Assembly: GCA_015064135.1 (NCBI GenBank)
Contig: SVSU01000001.1
Location: forward strand, 1-62,809
Reading direction: 5' to 3'
Length of the DNA: 62,809 nt
DNA from: Oscillospiraceae bacterium
GTDB lineage: Bacteria > Bacillota > Clostridia > Oscillospirales > CAG-272
Shown here: positions 18,956 through 58,600 of the stretch, one piece after another
Layout: the number at the start of each line of letters is the position of its first letter
How positions within the stretch are numbered: position 1 is the first letter of the stretch
Notes under the pieces: generated by a model
What the model saw: only the letters and a program-made list of their open reading frames with translations
Database searches by the model: none
What the model was told of the DNA's origin: nothing
Translations under genes and position numbers: made by a program

Positions 18956-19585
18956 ATGAAAAACACACTTCTCAAGAAAACAATATGTGCAGCATCTTCC
19001 GTTTTGATGCTTACCCTTACATCCTGCAGTTTAGATGCCGATAAAGTGGATGCAGGGCTTACATGGCTCAACGATATTTCGAAAGTTTACACCGAGACTG
19101 TCTCCACCATGGACAGCCCAGAAAATGCGGCACAGGAAGCAATTTCTCCGACAATGTGGAATAAACTCTCCTCGGGAACATATTTCCTTGATGTGTGCAA
19201 GCCGTATGATTCCTGTTGTGGTTATAGTTGTAGCCTTAGGGTATACTACGCTGCAGATGCCACTGCTTTTTTGATGGCTGGAGATGAATACACCAACGGA
19301 TTGGTATTGTCAGGTTGGAACGAAGGGGTATCATTTGCCCTCTTCAATCTTGAAGGGAAATACAAATCCCTCGAGATGGTGATTGCCCCGGTGGACGGAA
19401 GTCGTGGCCCCAGCGATATTGCCTTTGTGGTGGACGATGTAATTGTTGCCAAATATACGGTGGAGGACTCCGATTATCCAAAGACAATATCTGTTCCCTT
19501 GAAGAACGGCAATCAGTTGATGATCCGAACATTAGAAAATTGTGGGAATGCTTGTACGGGTCTCGGCAATATAATTGTGAAATAA
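18956..19585 (+). CDS. Lipoprotein, possible NPCBM-like carbohydrate-binding fold
   Basis: It has a signal peptide with the lipobox LTLTSC. The C-terminal beta-rich region resembles the NPCBM pattern only loosely. Confidence 0.6.
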   Translation: MKNTLLKKTICAASSVLMLTLTSCSLDADKVDAGLTWLNDISKVYTETVSTMDSPENAAQEAISPTMWNKLSSGTYFLDVCKPYDSCCGYSCSLRVYYAADATAFLMAGDEYTNGLVLSGWNEGVSFALFNLEGKYKSLEMVIAPVDGSRGPSDIAFVVDDVIVAKYTVEDSDYPKTISVPLKNGNQLMIRTLENCGNACTGLGNIIVK

Positions 19586-19635: not shown

Positions 19636-20619
19636 TCAATTCTGCTTAAAAATGCTCTGCTCTGTCAGCAGAGGATAATGCACAGGTTCCGTTCCATCCA
19701 AATCCACGTTGTGCATATCCACCGCCGTGATCTGGCGGTTTCCATAGGTGGTGTAGTAGTAGATTCCCCGTGACGCATTGCAGCATGAGGTGTAGAGGGT
19801 GATGTCGGGCTCACCGTTTTCAAGGATGCAGGAGCCGCGCACCATTTCCACCCCACCGAGGATATGGAAAAATTGTCCTACACAGTCAGCCTCACCCTCC
19901 CCCGAGAGGGAATTCAGCTTGAGAAAGGCGGCTTTGCGGAATCGGGACCCCGACGAAACATCCCCCGGCAGACCTATGGCGCCCATGCCCCTGCTGTAAG
20001 CCGAAAGGGGGTATTTCGCGGAAAAACGGTTCTCAGGCTCCCGTGGGGATAGGTTGATGAGGTCATTCAATCCCTGCATTTGCATGGGAAAGGGAGGATT
20101 GTTGGTAAGCACCCCCACGGGATCGTCGTATACCATAAGCCCATCCGCCACAGACTCAACTGCCACGGCACCCTCACGGTCGGCAATGAGCCAGTGAAGC
20201 TGTGCCGGGGGAACGGTGTCACTGAGGGGTGTGTTTGTTATGTTAAGCTCATCCACAGCATCCAGCACCTCCCTCACCGATGCACAGGTGCCCAGGATCC
20301 ACGGGATAAATTCAAAATGGCATAGGTTTGTCTTTGTGGGCGCCGCATCACGATACACCGCGTTTCCCACAAAATTAAGCCCGGCTATACCGAGCCCCTT
20401 TTCGTTTACCCCGTCGTAGTAAAGGGGGAAGCCGCAGGAGATCTTCTCACCTGCAGTCATGCCGATCATGGCGTAATGGTGTTCAGCGGTCTCCGTGTGG
20501 CGGAAAGGGAAGGGGTAATTCCGCGGCGTTACGGTTACTCTTTCGCCGAAGGATGTCTCATAGTCCAGTGTGCGGCCGAAATAATGGTCTCCGGTGGTGA
20601 TGGATAGGGCAGTGCACAT
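19636..20619 (-). CDS. Choloylglycine hydrolase family (bile salt hydrolase-like Ntn hydrolase)
   Basis: The N-terminal MCTALS provides the Cys2 nucleophile. The 327-aa length and overall sequence are typical of the BSH/PVA family. Confidence 0.8.
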   Translation of the reverse strand: MCTALSITTGDHYFGRTLDYETSFGERVTVTPRNYPFPFRHTETAEHHYAMIGMTAGEKISCGFPLYYDGVNEKGLGIAGLNFVGNAVYRDAAPTKTNLCHFEFIPWILGTCASVREVLDAVDELNITNTPLSDTVPPAQLHWLIADREGAVAVESVADGLMVYDDPVGVLTNNPPFPMQMQGLNDLINLSPREPENRFSAKYPLSAYSRGMGAIGLPGDVSSGSRFRKAAFLKLNSLSGEGEADCVGQFFHILGGVEMVRGSCILENGEPDITLYTSCCNASRGIYYYTTYGNRQITAVDMHNVDLDGTEPVHYPLLTEQSIFKQN

Positions 20620-20635
20620 GAAAATGCCTCCGAGA

Positions 20636-20684
20636 ATGAAAAAAGCGCTTTGGTTTTAGTTTAACCGAAAGCGCTTTGTTTTAT
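20636..20684 (-). terminator. Intrinsic terminator after the CNNM/CorC gene
   Basis: AAAGCGCTTTGG pairs with CCGAAAGCGCTTT, and T-runs lie on both strands. Confidence 0.5.
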
Positions 20685-20694
20685 TTGATTTGCG

Positions 20695-22086
20695 TCAGTC
20701 TTTGTCGTCGGATTTTTTATCCTTTTTTCTGTCACGGTCCCGTTCGTCCTCGTCATCATCGTCATCCTCCTCCTCGGACTCGGGGAGAGTGAGCACAACG
20801 GTCATCCTTTCGATGCGATGATCCTTGATTTCCGTTACCTTGATGTGAAGCGGTTCAAGCTCAAGCTCGAATTCCGTACCGTCCTCGGGAACGATACCGT
20901 AGTTGGAGAACACATATCCGCCCATGGTGTCATACTTGTCCGTGGGCATTTCGATTCCCAGCTCCTCCGCCACTTCTTCAAGGGGGGAGATGCCGCGGAT
21001 CACCCATGTATTCTCGTCGATTTTTTCCATATCGGGTTCTTCGTGCTCGGCGGCTTCCATGTCCGCAATGTCGCCCACAAGCTGCTGGAGGATGTCGTTC
21101 ATGGTAACGATGCCCATCAGTCCGCCGTATTCGTCAAGAACAACGGCAAAATGCTGCTTTGTGTCCTTCATCTGCTTGAACAGGACGTCAGCATGGATTC
21201 CTTCGGGAACGAAGTAAGCCTGCTTGACCGCCTCTTTTACGATGGTTTCCTTATCCGCGCTGCGGAGTCGGAAGAAGTCTTTGATATTCAGTACACCCAC
21301 AACCTCGTCAATGGTCTCGCCGCAGACGGGGTACATGAGGTGACGGGTTTCATGAATGATCTTTTCCCATTCCTCGATGCCGTCCTCCATCCAAAGGGGA
21401 GTGATGTCTGTTCGATGTGTAGCAAAGTCGCTGACGGTCAGGTCGTCGAACTCGAACACGTTCTCAATGAGCTCCTGCTCCTGCTCGTCGATGATACCCT
21501 TCTGGCTTCCCTCATCCACCATGAGGCGGATCTCTTCCTCGCTCACATCGTCCTCTGTTTCGTTGGGGTCAATGCCGAGGAGACGGAGAATACCGTTTGT
21601 TGACACGGAAAGGAGCCATACAATAGGTGTGAACAGTTTGGCAACGCCGCACAGCATACCCGACATAGCGAGAGCAAGCTTTTCGCTTTTGCGCATAGCC
21701 AGTCTCTTCGGAACAAGTTCGCCGAGAATGAGGGTGCAGTAAGAGAGAACCAGCGTGATAAGTACGACAGATATGGTTTCCACCATTGCCGCATTGAGCT
21801 TGATTCCCGCAGAGAGAACAGCATCCACAATAAGCCCCGAGAAATTATCCGCAGCGAACGCACTTCCGAGGAATCCGGAGAGGGTGATCGCTACCTGGAT
21901 TGTCGAAAGGAATTTTTCGGGTTTGTCTTTAAGTTTTTTTAGTTTTTTTGCCCTTTTGTCGCCCTGTTCTTCCAGTTTTGCCAGTTTTGCATCACTGACT
22001 GAAATTACGGCGATCTCCGCGCAGGCAAATATCGCGTTCAGTAGTATAAGTATAAGCTGCAGTAACAGTTGTCCCCAGATACCCAT
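20695..22086 (-). CDS. Hemolysin-family / CNNM (DUF21)-CBS-CorC_HlyC membrane protein with poly-acidic C-terminal tail
   Basis: The N-terminus (LNAIFACAEIAVISV) is DUF21-type. CBS-pair and CorC-like regions follow. The tail reads EEEDDDDDEDERDRDRKKDKK. Confidence 0.9.
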   Translation of the reverse strand: MGIWGQLLLQLILILLNAIFACAEIAVISVSDAKLAKLEEQGDKRAKKLKKLKDKPEKFLSTIQVAITLSGFLGSAFAADNFSGLIVDAVLSAGIKLNAAMVETISVVLITLVLSYCTLILGELVPKRLAMRKSEKLALAMSGMLCGVAKLFTPIVWLLSVSTNGILRLLGIDPNETEDDVSEEEIRLMVDEGSQKGIIDEQEQELIENVFEFDDLTVSDFATHRTDITPLWMEDGIEEWEKIIHETRHLMYPVCGETIDEVVGVLNIKDFFRLRSADKETIVKEAVKQAYFVPEGIHADVLFKQMKDTKQHFAVVLDEYGGLMGIVTMNDILQQLVGDIADMEAAEHEEPDMEKIDENTWVIRGISPLEEVAEELGIEMPTDKYDTMGGYVFSNYGIVPEDGTEFELELEPLHIKVTEIKDHRIERMTVVLTLPESEEEDDDDDEDERDRDRKKDKKSDDKD

Positions 22087-22367
22087 AAAATAAAACTTTC
22101 CTTATATAATGTATTTTGCGGCAGATATCCGCAATATGTGAAAAAGCAAAATTGAATTTTATGATGCCGATCAGGTCAACATATTATGTCCCGCAATGGG
22201 GAATGAGTATCCCGGAAACCGTTCCAGATACGACTTGAGCCTTGCGTGCTCCCTTGAAACAAAAAGCCTCACGGAACATCGCCCGTTGCAGCCTGTACTG
22301 TCTCCGCCGTCCACAATATACCTCCGTTTGAAAAATGGTAGAAGGTGTGTACACCTATGTGGTTATC

Positions 22368-22396
22368 ATTATATCATGCTGATATGCAAATGTCAA
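22368..22396 (-). promoter_or_regulatory. Sigma-A-type promoter driving a ~275-nt leader of the CNNM/CorC gene
   Basis: On the minus strand, TTGACA (22391-22396) is followed by 17 nt and then TATAAT (22368-22373). Confidence 0.5.
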
Positions 22397-22485
22397 GAGA
22401 TACGGGCGGAAAAGAAAATTTGGCTGAAAATCAAGTATTCGACAAATACATCCCCATCCCATAATGGGACAGTGGGACTTTTTTA

Positions 22486-22845
22486 TGACCCGAGGGGGAA
22501 TCGAACCCGGTCGCAATTTCCTTCGGAAACAGCTCCGGGGGTATCTCAAGCCCCACTTGAAATAAAAAAATAACTCCCATGTCTTTGACATGAGAGTTGC
22601 TTTTATGCCCCGAGGTGGAATCGAACCCTGTCGCAATTTCCTTCGGAAATAGCTCCGGGGGTATCTCAAGCCCCACTTGAAATAAAAAAACAACTCCCAT
22701 GTCTTTGACATGAGAGTTGTTTTTATGACCCGAGGGGGAATCGAACCCGGTCGCAATTTCCTTCGGAAACAGCTCCGGGGGTATCTCAAGCCCCACTTGA
22801 AATAAAAAACAACTCCCATGTCTTTGACATGAGAGTTGTTTTTTA
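22486..22845 (-). repeat. Three 120-bp tandem units, each a 67-nt tRNA-like module plus a 13-bp-stem terminator hairpin
   Basis: Units start at 22486, 22606 and 22726; the real tRNA-Glu follows in phase at 22846. The modules span 22486-22552, 22606-22672 and 22726-22792. The hairpins span 22571-22599, 22691-22719 and 22810-22838. Confidence 0.85.
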
Positions 22846-22917
22846 TGACCCGAGGGGGAATCGAACCCCCGTTACTGCCGTGAAAGGGCGGTGTCTTAGC
22901 CGCTTGACCATCGGGCC
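22846..22917 (-). tRNA. tRNA-Glu (UUC), CCA not encoded
   Basis: The sequence GGCCCGATGGTCAAGCGGCTAAGACACCGCCCTTTCACGGCAGTAACGGGGGTTCGATTCCCCCTCGGGTCA forms a cloverleaf with anticodon TTC. The 3' flank is TAAAAA. Confidence 0.9.
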
Positions 22918-22940
22918 TTAAAACACGATTTACCAAAGTT

Positions 22941-23015
22941 TGGTGACCCGAGGGGGAATCGAACCCCCGTTACTGCCGTGAAAGGGCGGTGTCTTAGCCG
23001 CTTGACCATCGGGCC
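22941..23015 (-). tRNA. tRNA-Glu (UUC), CCA encoded
   Basis: Its body is identical to the copy at 22846-22917, and it ends in CCA. Confidence 0.9.
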
Positions 23016-23038
23016 GAGTAACTTTGGTAAAATCGTGT

Positions 23039-23115
23039 TGGTAGCGGAAGTTGGACTTGAACCCACGACCTATCGGGTATGAACCGATTGCTCTAGCCAG
23101 CTGAGCTATTCCGCC
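23039..23115 (-). tRNA. tRNA-Met (CAU), elongator-like, CCA encoded
   Basis: GGCGGAATAGCTCAGCTGGCTAGAGCAATCGGTTCATACCCGATAGGTCGTGGGTTCAAGTCCAACTTCCGCTACCA carries a CAT anticodon loop. Confidence 0.9.
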
Positions 23116-23176
23116 ATTTGTTATCAAAAGATGAACTTTTTAATAACTTTCTGTGTTCTGTGCCGAACACGATGAT

Positions 23177-23205
23177 ATTATATCATAAAAGGATTCTTTT
23201 GTCAA
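23177..23205 (-). promoter_or_regulatory. Sigma-A-type promoter of the tRNA operon
   Basis: On the minus strand, TTGACA (23200-23205) is followed by 17 nt and then TATAAT (23177-23182). Confidence 0.6.
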
Positions 23206-23289
23206 CACCTTTTTTCAAAATATTCCTGTTTTTTTCATGTTGGTTTTTTTGCGTTTTTTCACCCGTTTTTTCCGCTGTGCTTTATTCTT

Positions 23290-31198: not shown

Positions 31199-32932
31199 TT
31201 GAAAAAGAAAATTATAGATATCGTGTCCCTGGCTGTTGTGGGGGCAGTGGTGGGCGGAATTGCCGTTGCCAATCTGGCTCAGCCCGACCGTCCCACCGTT
31301 TCCGAAATGGAAAACAGGGAGCTTGCCGAGGTGCCCGAGTTTACGGCAGATTCTCTGAAGGACGGCTCCTATTTCAAGGGGCTTTCCGCTTTCGTTTCCG
31401 ATACCTTTCTTTGTAGAGACCGACTTGTGTCCCTTTCAAAGAAAATGGATACCTTGAAAGGGATTGACTACAAATTGGGCGGAGAGGATTCTTTCGTTCT
31501 TCTTGACGGGTCGGGAAAAACGGAGGAAACCCTCGCTTCGGGGGCTGAGGATCTTTTGGATAAGGCATTTGAAAATCTGAACAAGCCCGAAACGGAACCT
31601 GTTGAAACGGAACCTACGGAGACAGAGCCTGTCGAAACGGAGTCAGCCGAGACAGAGCCTGCCGAAACAGAGCCTGTCGAGACGGAATCTGCCGAAACGG
31701 AGTCAGCCGAAACGGAATCTGCGGAGACAGAACCTGCTGAAACGGAATATTACATCAATGGACTGACCCTGAGCAAGAGCTCCGTGAAGCTGACGGTGGG
31801 AAGCGGAACCGTGGTTCATGCCTATCTTGATACCAACGATCCTATGGCGAAGAACGTAAAATGGAGCGTTTCCGATCCCGAGGTAGCGTCCATTGCCATC
31901 AACCCAAGCGGCGGTATCGATGTGAAGGGACTCAGCGAGGGCTCATGTACCTTGAAATGCAGATACGAGGACCTGTTCAGCGTAACCTGCGAGATTACGG
32001 TGACAGCCATCAAAGAGGTAACGACGACCCAAAACGAGCCGGCGGCTGACTTTCTGACAAACGGAATGTTTATCTACGGCGATGCGGTGCATACACAGGC
32101 ATTCTACTCTGCGGCGAACGCGGGGTATTACGCAAAGACGGCGGCATATTATAAATCCCTCTTCGGCGAGGACGTGCGTATGAATGTTGTGGTGGCTCCC
32201 GTATCCTCCGTTGTGGTGGAAAACGAGGCGGTGAAGTCAACCATTGCCGATCAGAGGGTGATCCTTGACGACATGGCGGCACTTATGCCCTCCGGCGTCA
32301 ACTTTGTGGATGCCTATACGCCCATTTATGAGCACAGGGATGAATACCTGTATTTCAAGAGTGACCACCACTGGACCCAGCGCGGAGCATACTATGCGTA
32401 CACCGCCTTTGCCGAGTCCGTGGGTCTTACCCCCACTCCTCTCAGTGATTTTGACTTTACGATCCGCAACGATTCTTACAGCGGAAGTATGTATATGTAC
32501 ACCCAGGATGAACGGGTCAAGAGCTTTACCGATGAGATCGAGGTATTCGTTTCAAGGAAGCCCCACACCATGACGGTAACGGGCGCAAACGGAGCCACAT
32601 ACAATTACGCCTCTGCGGTTGCGGAATCCAACAATACCTATGTGACCTTTATCGCAGGAGACAATCCCTATACGGTAATCAACGTTCCCGAGAACCCCCA
32701 GGATTTTAACGTGCTCGTGTTGAAGGACTCCTTCGGAAACGCTTTTGTGCCCTTCCTTTGCGAGCATTACGGCAATATCATCGTGGTGGATGTCCGTTAT
32801 TCTGCCTTCAATATTTACGAACACTTGAAGGATTACGGGCTGTCGGATATTATTTTTGTAAACAACATTCAGGCGGCAAATTCCTATTCATGGTCAAAGA
32901 TGTATCTTTCCGCTGTGGGTGTTTCGGAATAA
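31199..32932 (+). CDS. DHHW-motif protein (AlgX/AlgJ-like SGNH partner of MBOAT) with ETEPx repeat linker and Big_2-like domain
   Basis: The TTG start at 31199 has GAGGTG 6 nt upstream. An N-terminal anchor and the motif FKSDHHWTQRGAYYAY are present. It follows directly after the MBOAT gene. Confidence 0.8.
   Translation: MKKKIIDIVSLAVVGAVVGGIAVANLAQPDRPTVSEMENRELAEVPEFTADSLKDGSYFKGLSAFVSDTFLCRDRLVSLSKKMDTLKGIDYKLGGEDSFVLLDGSGKTEETLASGAEDLLDKAFENLNKPETEPVETEPTETEPVETESAETEPAETEPVETESAETESAETESAETEPAETEYYINGLTLSKSSVKLTVGSGTVVHAYLDTNDPMAKNVKWSVSDPEVASIAINPSGGIDVKGLSEGSCTLKCRYEDLFSVTCEITVTAIKEVTTTQNEPAADFLTNGMFIYGDAVHTQAFYSAANAGYYAKTAAYYKSLFGEDVRMNVVVAPVSSVVVENEAVKSTIADQRVILDDMAALMPSGVNFVDAYTPIYEHRDEYLYFKSDHHWTQRGAYYAYTAFAESVGLTPTPLSDFDFTIRNDSYSGSMYMYTQDERVKSFTDEIEVFVSRKPHTMTVTGANGATYNYASAVAESNNTYVTFIAGDNPYTVINVPENPQDFNVLVLKDSFGNAFVPFLCEHYGNIIVVDVRYSAFNIYEHLKDYGLSDIIFVNNIQAANSYSWSKMYLSAVGVSE
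31589..31747 (+). repeat. 15-bp in-frame tandem repeat (about 10.6 copies) encoding (E-T-E-P/S-V/A/T)n
   Basis: GAAACGGAACCTGTT-type units recur head to tail. The translation is ETEPVETEPTETEPVETESAETEPAETEPVETESAETESAETESAETEPAETE. Confidence 0.9.
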
Positions 32933-44852: not shown

Positions 44853-45166
44853 TGCAGAATAACTCGTGAATCAAGGTCATACCAGTCGGGGGAGCAGCGG
44901 GTCCCTGTACTCGAAATCCGCTATAGCGAGGATGGTATCCCGAAACGAGGGTGAGATTTGTATGGTCTGTGCCGCAGTTGGACGTGTTGACGAATGGGTC
45001 CTGCGCGATCGGCGGCTGTGAACCATGTCAGGTGGGGAACCAAGCAGCATTAAGCAGTTTAGCCGATGCGCCGCAGGGCAGCCTGTTCTGAGCGTGCACT
45101 GCGGTGTCGCATATGGATTCTCATTCGACTTTCGGGTGTATGGCCTTGATTTGGGTGTTATTCTGC
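44853..45166 (+). ncRNA. ffs: Signal recognition particle RNA (large, Bacillus/Clostridium-type scRNA)
   Basis: The domain IV motif GTCAGGTGGGGAACCAAGCAGC pairs with a partner GGCAGCC segment. The termini pair over a long stretch (GCAGAATAAC...ATCAAGGTCATAC with GTATGGCCTTGAT...GTTATTCTGC). The position just upstream of dnaX matches Bacillus. The exact ends are approximate. Confidence 0.75.
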
Positions 45167-55671: not shown

Positions 55672-58600
55672 ATGAAAAGGATTTTGAGCTTTATTCTGAC
55701 TTTATGTATGGTAGCATCGGCGGTTCCGTGGGGTGTGGTTGCGGAGGAGGTTTTCAGCGAGACTGCAATTACGGCGGAAGCCGGTGTTACGGCATCAGGC
55801 AAGTGCGGCGATAATTTGACGTGGGTACTGTATGGTGATGGGGAATTGGTGATCAGCGGTACAGGGGCGATGTGGGATTGGGCATATAATTCAAAGGTTC
55901 CGTGGTACCCCTATCGTTCTGCCGTTGTCAAGGTTACCATTGAAGATGAGGTTACTTCCATTGGCGATTATGCATTCGACGCCTACAGCTTGACAAGCGT
56001 AGCGATAGGCGACAGCGTTACTTCCATTGGCGATCACGCATTCTCCGGCTGCGGAAGCTTAACAAGCGTAACGATAGGCGACAGCGTTACTTCCATTGGT
56101 GCTTCTGCATTCTTAGAATGCACCAGGTTGACAAACGTAACGATAGGCGACAGCGTTACTTCCATTGGTGCTTCTGCATTCTGGTACTGCAATAGTTTGA
56201 CAAGCGTAACGATACCCGACAGCGTTACTTCCATTGGCTATAGGGCATTCAGGCACTGCGTCAGCTTGACAAGCGTAACGATACCCGACAGCGTTACTTC
56301 CATTGGCGATGAGGCATTCTGGCACTGCGTATGTTTGACAAGCGCCACCGTTCTCAGCAGAGATGCTGAGTTTGGCTCAGGTGTTTTCATGAAGAGTGGC
56401 TTCTCCGACGTCGTCACCCTCTACGGCTACGCAGGCTCCACAACCGAAGCTTATGCGAAGGAGAACGGGAATAAATTTGTTGCATTGGAGGAGCCGGAGG
56501 AGGAAAACACCCTTCCAATCTTCACTCACTTCGGTCAATACAACGGGTGTACCAGAGAACACCTCCCCATAGGTGAAAATGGTTTGAAAGAATACAGGGT
56601 GACAAGCATAACCATAGACGGGGTTACATATAACGTTGCAGATCCATACAATCATGACATCTATCAGCCCATCTTAATGTATGAGGGTTATCTTGCAAAT
56701 TACTACTATACAGCATTTAACCTTAACGAAAACAATGAGATTACCGCTGCAGCTACTACGTTTGGCACTGTATGCGGGCTTGATGGATGGGATCCCGTGG
56801 CGAAGGTTATTGATACGGATTTGGTATATTTGACACCGGTCGGAAACCAGACCAATTCAACATTGCCCGGCGGAAGCTACTATGTAAGCGATATTGTTGC
56901 CGACAGTTTCCCCTTGGATAAGATAGGAAACTGGATTGGCGATCAGGTGCGCGTGTATACGTTTGGTGAGCAGGTGTTTAAGGTTATTCATATAACGAAA
57001 AGAGAAGGTGTTGTGACATCTTACGATAAAAACAACTCACCCAATACCGTTTATATCAATAATATTCCATACAAGGTTGCCGCTGATGAACTGTTGTATG
57101 AAACGATTGAGAGTCCATTTGTTAATGGCAGCCAATACATAAAAGATGCAGAATGTACACTATATGACGATGTTATTGTTGAGGTGGTTTATGTAAATCA
57201 AAAACTTGACCCGGAGCAGTTCAACGAATACATATACCACGCCAAAGTCTCCCTTGACCCGAATGATGAACACTATCCTACTTTCCAAAATTATCTTATA
57301 GGGGAAAGAAGTTCTCCGGCTAAAGATACTGTGAACTCCTGCAAAGAAACAGCTTTTGCTGCAGAAGCGGCTGTATGGTCGACTACAACCAATATATTTG
57401 ATGCTCTTATTGAAGGCCCGGCAGGGACTATGTACAATGAGTCTATCAAACAAAAAGATATCTACACAGCGATTATTCTTGCTTCACTTGAAACATCGTA
57501 TAAAGAAGTAATCAATGATTCATTGGATGAGGTCGCAAAATATGGTCTCGATATGCTTTCGTTGCCATTTGAAATACATGACACTGCATCTAAATATAAA
57601 ACATGGAAAGAAATTGACTTTAAATCATTGAATTCTGCCACGAAAGACAAATTAAAAGGACAACTTAAAACCTATGTTAAAGATAAATTCTTTCATAAAA
57701 GTGCAGATTCCTCAGATGTATTTTCAATGATTGATGTTGCTTTTAAAACTGCTGACTGCATCGAGACAATCACGGAAACCGTATCGGCATACTGTAAAAT
57801 AAGAATGTTAAATGCAGAGATGAAAACTGTGATTGAATATATGTATGAAGCTTGTCCTTCATCAAATCAGCACTTAAAGGATGCTCTATCGGATTGCGTA
57901 AAGGCAATCACATTGGCAGACGATAAATTTAAAGGTGCAATGTTAAAGGATTCCCTTTCCTTTGCCGGTGCATTTGCCGGAGTACAAATGGCAGATTTTC
58001 TGTGGGGCTGCTGCGGTGATATTTTGGGGACATTTTTTCCTGTTGTAAATGCAATCAAAATAGCATACTCGGCAGGAAAAATGCTACTGGAATTAGCTAC
58101 CGGGATAAAACAAAAGTCAGAGGCATATTACCGATTAACTTCTTTGCTGAATTACCAAGAATTGGCAAGGAGGGTTTTGGATAATCTCGGGAACCAATTC
58201 GAGAATTCACAGACGGAAGCGAATGCAAAATTGTATTTGGAAGCGGCAAGAATGGGTTGGCAGATTTTGAAAACGGATGCCAATTATACTGTCGATTTCT
58301 TTAAGACATTTAAATATTCAGCAAGTGATTTGTTTAATAGTGAGGAAATTGATTCTCTGATTTCGACATATACCAATATGTATCAAATCTACAGTGAATT
58401 TGAAGTGAAATTCGATGTTTTGTGGATCGACAATCTTAGAGAAGACTATCCGGAATTAGTTTCCGAATATGAGTACAGGATGTATAACGCGATACTGAAA
58501 CTCGAAGAGATAACTGTTGCCTGTCCCGTAAATGTGTATGTCTATGACGAATCCAACAAAATGGTAGCATATGTTGTAGATGGAAAGCCATATGCTACGG

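Follow-up and report, generated by a model that had tools for sequence, protein, structure and literature searches.

In Escherichia coli, the tandem repeats that follow the tyrT tRNA-Tyr genes are transcribed as the trailer of the tRNA operon, with Rho-dependent termination. Our re-analysis of the K-12 tyrT-tyrV locus (NC_000913.3) with Tandem Repeats Finder (TRF) gave a period of 178, 3.1 copies and a 95% match, each unit closing with the 3'-terminal 19 nt of tRNA-Tyr, and the annotation places both rttR and tpr in the first unit; that rttR is encoded by one repeat unit is stated in a passage of PMC3318445 that cites Bosl and Kersten 1991. Here we describe an array of similar layout on the minus strand of a 62,809-nt stretch of DNA from an Oscillospiraceae bacterium (contig SVSU01000001.1; hereafter the window), located directly behind a tRNA Met-Glu-Glu operon, and we relate its units to a conserved element of about 160 nt, termed E, which occupies the same genomic position in related bacteria.

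The tyrT/tyrV locus of E. coli is the closest known analogue of the array, with which it shares the architecture without homology. At both loci a tandem pair of identical tRNA genes gives way to about 3.1 repeats, which are arranged head to tail and keep phase with the tRNA, and in both cases the unit ends in the 3' nucleotides of that tRNA (19 nt of tRNA-Tyr in E. coli, 23 nt of tRNA-Glu in the window). The two loci differ, however, in phylum, in the tRNA concerned and in the length of the unit (120 versus 178 bp), and they exhibit no sequence or covariance-model similarity, a cmscan of positions 22300-23250 returning no RtT match at E<=10. In further contrast to the E. coli repeats, a strong intrinsic terminator stands before each unit of the window, and the array holds no conserved small open reading frame (ORF) like tpr. 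RNAs of the 3' external transcribed spacer (3'ETS), such as 3'ETS-leuZ of E. coli, offer a second point of comparison: they are non-tRNA RNAs derived from the trailer of a tRNA operon, to which E would be analogous if it were transcribed, although the 3'ETS of E. coli precedes the operon terminator whereas E lies past one.

The array and its terminators

The repeat observation is confirmed: the three units that a sequence-only reading of the window had placed 120 bp apart, in phase with tRNA-Glu, are borne out both by TRF and by the positions of the tRNA-derived segment. TRF finds a single array at 22480-22868, with a period of 120, 3.2 copies, 95% matches, 0 indels and a score of 720. The tRNA-derived segment, R23, comprises the last 23 nt of tRNA-Glu (GGGTTCGATTCCCCCTCGGGTCA, minus strand), from the 5' strand of the T stem to the discriminator, and recurs with an exact 120-bp spacing at 22486, 22606 (2 mismatches), 22726 and 22846, the last of these lying within tRNA-Glu copy 2; a further match at 22944 is that in tRNA-Glu copy 1, and an R23 match was obtained in 0 of 100 shuffles. 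The non-tRNA part of the unit, GGAGCTGTTTCCGAAGGAAATTGCGAC, occurs three times, always in the array and nowhere else in the window, and was not seen in shuffled sequence. Moreover, three further metagenome contigs (L001, L002 and L088) match positions 22400-23210 with 100% identity, and the array is therefore no one-off assembly artefact.

On the minus strand, on which all feature coordinates are read, the order past tRNA-Glu copy 2 is terminator-unit A, terminator-unit B, terminator-unit C. This second tRNA-Glu (UUC) gene (22846..22917; ARAGORN, Rfam) is without CCA, and its last 23 nt (22846-22868) constitute the first R23. Behind it stands terminator T0 (22804..22844), recognised in the sequence as an inverted repeat with a 13-bp G+C core (22810-22838) between an A run and a T run and identical in its hairpin to the scored terminators that follow, and then unit A (22726..22797), which consists of a remnant of E (5' motif GGGGCUUGAGAUACCCC and P3 hairpin at 22756-22770) and of R23 at 22726-22748. 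The terminator after unit A (22684..22724), with an 18-pair stem and a T run, leads to unit B (22606..22677), diverged by sequence comparison and carrying the two mismatches in its R23 (22606-22628); the terminator after unit B (22564..22604), which has lost its closing pair and retains a 12-pair stem and a T run, leads in turn to unit C (22486..22557), with R23 at 22486-22508. Each unit was said to end with a terminator, yet the reverse is the case: a 13-bp G+C-rich intrinsic terminator with a run of 6-7 T precedes every unit, and unit C is followed by unique flanking sequence (22397..22485) with a weak hairpin at 22454-22472. No homologue of this flank was found among the fetched loci of other species.

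Units A and C are identical across 72 nt. The four substitutions previously ascribed to unit B hold for the 67-nt part of the unit but not for the full 120 bp, over which 6 positions distinguish unit B from unit A, the remaining 2 lying in the terminator. The proposal that the terminator pairs better on the minus strand is upheld, with stems of 18 and 12 pairs as against 6-pair stems on the plus strand; since one pair of the hairpin is G-U when the minus strand is read as RNA, the hairpin is oriented with the tRNAs. No promoter-like site was found within 22486-22845 on either strand.

Gene callers give a 121-aa protein over the array (22431-22796, minus strand) in contigs L001, L002 and L088. 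This ORF is spurious, a product of the 120-bp period, which keeps the reading frame; a protein search with it for further arrays yielded no candidates.

Element E and the origin of the units

In three related metagenome-assembled genomes (L091, L178 and L095, whose SpoIIR proteins are 75%, 67% and 51% identical to that of the window), E lies directly past the terminator of the same operon (spoIIR / tRNA Met-Glu-Glu). Its 5' portion of about 18 nt, GGGG(T/A)TGAGAA(T/C)NCC, corresponds to the 5' part of the window units (GGGGCTTGAGATACC), and its last 50 nt or so correspond to their 3' part, the identity being 92% in L091 (blastn, 52 nt; the same value for units A and C). The 3' end of E in L091 and L095 is the tRNA-Glu tail of the respective genome (…CCCCTACGGGTCA), while E of L178 stops just past TTCGATTCC, a T-loop sequence. 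The 44 nt of each unit that had been described as unrelated to tRNA-Glu are made up of the 5' 18 nt or so of E and about 28 nt from its 3' portion; since they match both ends of E they are neither unrelated sequence nor random scar, but the remnant of a conserved element. About 95 nt of E are gone from the window, namely the long-range helix P2 (AAAGUUCC/GGAACUUU) and a variable inner domain. The E body was also considered as a degenerate direct or inverted copy of tRNA-Glu and rejected, local alignments against shuffles not being significant (p = 0.04-0.68) and the best match being trivial.

A covariance model, R1, trained on the three full-length copies of E, was run against 179 Oscillospirales loci and 70 viral loci, among which it matched its three training copies and the window units and no others. 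Unit A scored 53.6 bits and unit C 48.1 bits (E about 1e-12), at the same genomic position, the match being partial on account of the deletion of P2 and the inner domain. The alignment produced by R1 mis-anchors the 5' motif of the window units on the T arm of the preceding tRNA and was not trusted, and pairs were counted by hand. E has no match in Rfam, and blastn found none among 50,697 phage records; among 72,556 plasmid records it picked up one 34-nt stretch, shared by two Priestia plasmids and lying mainly over the terminator. The 3' pattern of E is absent from IMG/VR, in which 70 loci sharing a 15-mer with E were rejected as chance-level matches that fail the covariance model. Pattern scans, exact or degenerate, for a novel 27-mer and for the junction of hairpin and T arm gave 0 hits in genome, metagenome and viral contigs, the metagenome set evidently being without samples of this species.

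The distribution of E is patchy, the element being absent from close relatives (L093/L094, L175/L176 and L011). In L095, R23, terminator and E are repeated in tandem with a period of 202 up to the end of the contig, and L091 holds a second, truncated copy (E2); duplication is therefore recurrent in the E family. Unit B (22606-22628) and the truncated E of L178 (3760-3773) have independently undergone the same change from C to A in the T stem, on its 3' strand (GATTCCAC).

We consider it more probable than any other single account, and slightly better than an even chance, that the array is a tandem amplification of the tRNA-Glu tail, the terminator and an internally deleted copy of E. The amplified 120-bp segment would begin at the 5' strand of the T stem in tRNA-Glu copy 2, run through the terminator and end with the shortened E. 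The ancestral state would have been tRNA-Glu, R23, terminator, E-body, R23 and flank, with two copies of R23 already in place. The loss of the P2 domain, which is evident from the comparison with the relatives, is clean and would fit slippage across the base of a hairpin, and unequal homologous recombination or replication slippage between repeats of R23 (with the terminator) would then have led to three copies. Expansion between R23 repeats predicts one extra R23 at the end of the array, as is observed. The window copies, moreover, look like decaying derivatives of E, with 2 mismatches in P1b, and with one P1a/T-stem pair and one acceptor pair broken in unit B.

Several observations weigh against this account. 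A homology of 23 bp is short for RecA-dependent recombination, so that the first duplication step is unexplained, and the event by which E first gained a tRNA-Glu tail is left unaccounted for. In the GAA-loop hairpin P3, 30/30 cells over five distinct sequences are paired, and at three positions both partners have changed (UA/CG/GU/AU, UA/CG and CG/AU). Between the two SpoIIR clades (amino-acid identity about 50%), moreover, identity is 72-73% in the E body as compared with 52-63% in the spacers between the tRNAs. The window units retain precisely the conserved 5' motif, P3 and T-arm region and might conceivably represent a minimised functional form, and the identity of units A and C could reflect selection as well as very recent conversion. 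For the first joining of R23 and E, an origin by site-specific recombination is kept as a live rival because the block of identity begins with the T stem and, in L178, the junction falls at the T loop.

If the array did arise by such an amplification, little RNA from the units would be expected, because a strong terminator stands before each of them and no promoter was found; past the first terminator, trace read-through at most is predicted. The sole activity predicted for the array would be redundant termination between the very strong promoter of the tRNA operon and the co-directional promoter of a small ORF (sORF) and CNNM/CorC gene 90 bp downstream. A selected version of this idea, in which a rearrangement placed the sORF-CNNM/CorC unit co-directionally behind the very strong tRNA promoter and the expansion of the units served to insulate the downstream promoter and leader, seems highly unlikely to us. 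It would be consistent with the presence of three intrinsic terminators in 280 bp, with the next promoter 90 bp past the array, and with the orientation of the downstream genes, which are convergent in L091 and L178, where E is present in one copy, and co-directional in the window only. The argument is nevertheless purely circumstantial: a single 13-bp G+C-rich terminator with a run of 6-7 T is probably efficient already, the third terminator is weakened in unit B, and E is also in tandem in L095, up to the end of the contig.

tRNA resemblance and RNA structure

The units were previously interpreted as possible tRNA-like small RNAs that serve as substrates for RNase P, RNase Z or the CCA-adding enzyme, an interpretation for which neither the ARAGORN and Rfam searches, nor the predicted fold, the conservation of the acceptor pairing or the layout of promoters and terminators lend any computed support. 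A relaxed search with ARAGORN calls just the three real tRNAs and nothing in the units, and Rfam yields no tRNA-clan match there either, whether the gathering threshold or E<=10 is applied; the sole relaxed Rfam matches are fragments of transfer-messenger RNA (tmRNA) of 7-11 bits over the T loop. Additional 22-nt matches in L035, L055 and L063 proved to be genuine ssrA genes and are unrelated.

The predicted 7-bp acceptor-like pairing of GGCUUGA with UCGGGUC does exist in the window (7/7, with three G-U pairs), and in the 67-mer this stem is predicted with a probability of 0.99. The T arm, described as weakened, fares worse: its stem, for which 3 pairs are possible at most, has a pairing probability of 0.002, and CCGGG pairs instead with an upstream CCCGG at 0.98. 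The cloverleaf-like fold formerly envisaged has an energy of -12.8 kcal/mol versus -25.1 kcal/mol for the minimum free energy (MFE) structure, which is itself no better than that of shuffles (z = -1.16). Nor is the acceptor pairing maintained elsewhere, being 5/7 in L091, 4/7 in L095 and 6/7 in unit B, with its 3' strand absent from L178. Two substitutions of unit B, at 57 and 65, each break a pair of the earlier model, that at 44 affects a T-stem position already unpaired, and the fourth keeps a hairpin pair. With the tRNA-like domain of tmRNA and with minihelices the units share a genuine T-loop sequence and a discriminator base, to which this species adds a 7-bp acceptor-like helix; they depart from them in the T stem, the conservation of the acceptor helix and the search results given above. 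If the array arose by the amplification outlined above, their tRNA resemblance is an inheritance from partial duplication of the tRNA gene, and the 7-bp acceptor pairing is probably a lineage-specific accident.

A different matter is whether E itself is an RNA. Judging from the pattern of substitutions, full-length E may be a real structured RNA. All three full copies share a common MFE layout, with an outer helix formed by the 5' motif and the T-arm region, followed by P2 and P3, and one of the three beats shuffles (z = -3.3 in L178, compared with -0.41 and -0.68 in the other two); P1 and P2 are invariant and without covariation in this three-sequence model. It is conceivable, although rather unlikely, that E is a structured RNA, transcribed either through read-through from the tRNA operon or from a promoter that escaped recognition, and released by the nucleases of tRNA maturation through its copied tail, the window then carrying a minimised form in three copies. 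Such functional small RNAs would account for the compensatory changes in P3 and for the single MFE architecture, and they would be in keeping with the G-U pairs in units A and C and in the terminators, which fit an RNA of the tRNA-sense strand, with the terminator that follows E in every species, with the strongly predicted acceptor-like stem of the 67-mer and with the precedent of the rttR RNA, which the cited passage of PMC3318445 attributes to one tyrT repeat unit. They are harder to reconcile with the lack of a promoter and the strong terminator upstream of each copy, with the remaining z-scores (-0.41, -0.68 and -1.16), none of which is significant, and with the invariance of P1 and P2 in a model built from 3 sequences. 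The acceptor pairing, furthermore, is not conserved, the 3' tail is missing in L178, truncated pseudo-copies exist (E2 of L091) and close relatives lack E altogether.

A more specific variant of this idea we regard as quite improbable. Full-length E would constitute a new Oscillospirales RNA family in which the 5' motif pairs with the copied T-arm region and the tail is matched to the tRNA-Glu of the host, either for maturation by tRNA enzymes or for interaction with the machinery of tRNA-Glu. What the window carries would in that case be the minimised and triplicated core of the family, made up of the 5' motif, the hairpin with its GAA loop and the tail derived from the tRNA.

Mobile elements and the surrounding locus

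Partial copies of tRNA genes are often left behind by the integration of mobile elements (PMC9897764), crossover within the T loop is documented for phage Ms6 (PMC1762012), and cis-mobilizable elements (CIMEs) and tandem accretion have likewise been described (PMC5704250). With CIMEs and the scars of integrative elements the array shares tandem direct repeats of the 3' part of a tRNA gene from the T arm onward and a hypervariable, rearranged flank (PMC9897764, PMC5704250): the direct repeats do correspond to a tRNA 3' segment that begins at the crossover region, the T loop. One could accordingly imagine that E-body, R23 and terminator formed the attachment (att) region, attP, of an element targeting the T loop of tRNA-Glu, which decayed to a gene-less, CIME-like remnant between att sites and was multiplied by integrase-driven accretion or by recombination of attL with attR, the integrase acting in trans. 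To this scenario we assign a rather low probability.

The scenario would explain why the identity to the tRNA extends from the T stem and T loop to the 3' end, as in the partial copies and the Ms6 crossover just cited, why E of L178 breaks right after TTCGATTCC, and why E is distributed so unevenly, and it would suit the rearrangements of the flank described below, the repeats of a tRNA tail and terminator in L024, L050 and L008 (tRNA-Gly), and the documented accretion of CIMEs. It is at odds, however, with the gene content. Between the repeats there is nothing beyond the terminator and the remnant of E. The 62.8-kb window has 46 ORFs with a length of 170 aa or more, of which 44 are covered by Pfam scans, taking in 41 ORFs, or by precomputed labels, and these revealed no integrase, recombinase, transposase or phage gene; the two remaining are the array ORF (22355-22936) and an ORF at 18956-19585 that lacks a confident match in Pfam, and those with Pfam labels are housekeeping and carbohydrate-active genes. 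No integrase, recombinase or phage gene was seen beside E in L091 (a sigma-70-like protein, a helix-turn-helix protein and unknowns) or beside the arrays of L024 and L008, and the genes flanking E in L178 carry DUF3021 and LytTR labels and no others.

Neither integrase, cargo genes nor a full element was found in any relative examined: about 20 loci with this tRNA-Glu, a small sample in which many contigs end at the tRNA genes, showed no full element at the att site. The searches of phage, plasmid and IMG/VR records reported above point in the same direction, the plasmid match being short and mostly terminator. An element of 120 bp would be far below the size of any described CIME, and what each unit holds besides the tRNA tail is no arbitrary element end but a conserved element whose hairpin covaries, such compensatory evolution of P3 being unexpected for an att arm. 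The suggestion that the units are att scars later amplified comes closer to the evidence than that of tRNA-like RNAs. What survives of it is the partial duplication of a tRNA gene at a hypervariable flank, whereas the failure to find an integrase in the window or beside E in the relatives examined and the nature of the 44 nt, which are no random scar, speak against the remainder.

The 3' flank of tRNA-Glu is hypervariable and rearranged among relatives, and the comparison of gene orders marks it as a hot spot of rearrangement. In the window the CNNM-CBAH pair (19636-22086) comes next after the array, whereas it is inverted and lies four genes from the tRNAs in the L091 genome (L003 and L091 being one contig), and it occupies a different locus in the L093 genome (L005/L007 and L093 compared), the breakpoint falling each time in the 3' flank of tRNA-Glu. 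Synteny traced through the downstream CNNM gene was uninformative, its close homologues (76-86% identity) not lying beside tRNAs because the block has moved, and a 19-nt similarity (16/19) between the flank after unit C and the 3' flank of CBAH was judged to be chance.

Repeats of a tRNA tail and terminator were also observed at L024 4819-5270, L050 4814-5041, L047 4848-4963 and L008 4880-4990, with periods of 226-289 and 196 for tRNA-Glu and of about 145 for tRNA-Gly (L008); two of the contigs with such repeats end within them. These repeats are unrelated to E and open with an inverted copy of the T arm (GGGGAATCGAA, GGGGGAATCGAACCC, GGGAATCGAACCC), the inverted T-arm fragments being clearer in L024, L047 and L050 than in the E body. 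The neighbours of the L024 and L008 arrays, beside which no recombinase was found, are mecA, a metalloenzyme, and ftsW/spoVE or a sigma factor.

The arrangement of trkH-trkA-spoIIR followed by tRNA Met-Glu(-Glu) is widespread in Oscillospirales. In the window the tRNA operon is preceded by a sigma-70-type promoter at 23177..23205 (TTGACA-17-TATAAT with TG, 12/12 consensus), which is conserved upstream of the operon in relatives, and begins with tRNA-Met (CAU) at 23039..23115 (ARAGORN; Rfam tRNA 61.7 bits) and tRNA-Glu (UUC) copy 1 at 22941..23015 (ARAGORN, Rfam), which is identical to copy 2 apart from its encoded CCA. The flanks of copy 1 (22918-22940/23016-23038) are joined by a helix of 17-20 bp (-17 to -27 kcal/mol), which encloses the gene in 9/9 species checked (the window, L091, L178, L175, L093, L095, L011, L016 and L019) with sequences wholly different between clades (CAACACGATTTTACCAAAGTT/AACTTTGGTAAATCGTGTT versus AAAAAATTCAGCG/CGCTGAATTTTTT) and looks like a covarying processing stalk around one tRNA of the operon. 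Upstream of the operon, L089 (1024-1136; JGI 3300024270) encodes a SpoIIR identical to that of the window and diverges totally from 8 nt past the stop codon, which might reflect either a rearrangement at strain level or chimerism of the assembly.

Downstream, the features considered here are bounded by the promoter of the sORF-CNNM/CorC unit (22368..22396; 12/12 consensus, conserved in L003-L005). Between this promoter (22396-22368) and the CNNM start at 22086 lies a 47-codon sORF (22171-22314, minus strand) with a GGAGGT Shine-Dalgarno sequence, conserved before CNNM/CorC in the window, L003, L004 and L005 as (M/V)DGGDSTGCNGRC...EHA.YK.Y..R...H.MLT*. Its first 45 nt or so are near-invariant in the four species, synonymous sites included, and its end is overlapped by another conserved site resembling a promoter, TTGACC...CATAAAAT. 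The sORF, which has no match in Pfam, NCBIfam or Rfam, could be a small protein or a leader. Elsewhere in the window we observed a T-box leader before the valyl-tRNA synthetase gene (15869-16108), a 15-nt repeat of 10.7 copies inside an ORF of the DHHW family (31587-31747), a large signal recognition particle RNA (44877-45143) and a 69/207-nt repeat inside a 1215-aa BspA-type leucine-rich repeat protein (55951-56344).

If the ordinary reading is right, in which the array is a tandem amplification of the tRNA-Glu tail, the terminator and a shortened E, the locus would provide a clear example from the Firmicutes of a phenomenon that was described decades ago at tyrT of E. coli. It would illustrate that the tails of tRNA genes can seed short tandem repeats, which give rise to spurious ORFs and may be mistaken for novel tRNA-like RNAs. 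The analysis also draws attention to the sequence 3' of this tRNA-Glu as a rearrangement hot spot in gut Oscillospirales. Element E, with its length of about 160 nt, its covarying hairpin and its presence in four species, is a candidate new RNA motif and, as a by-product of this analysis, may prove more useful than the array itself.

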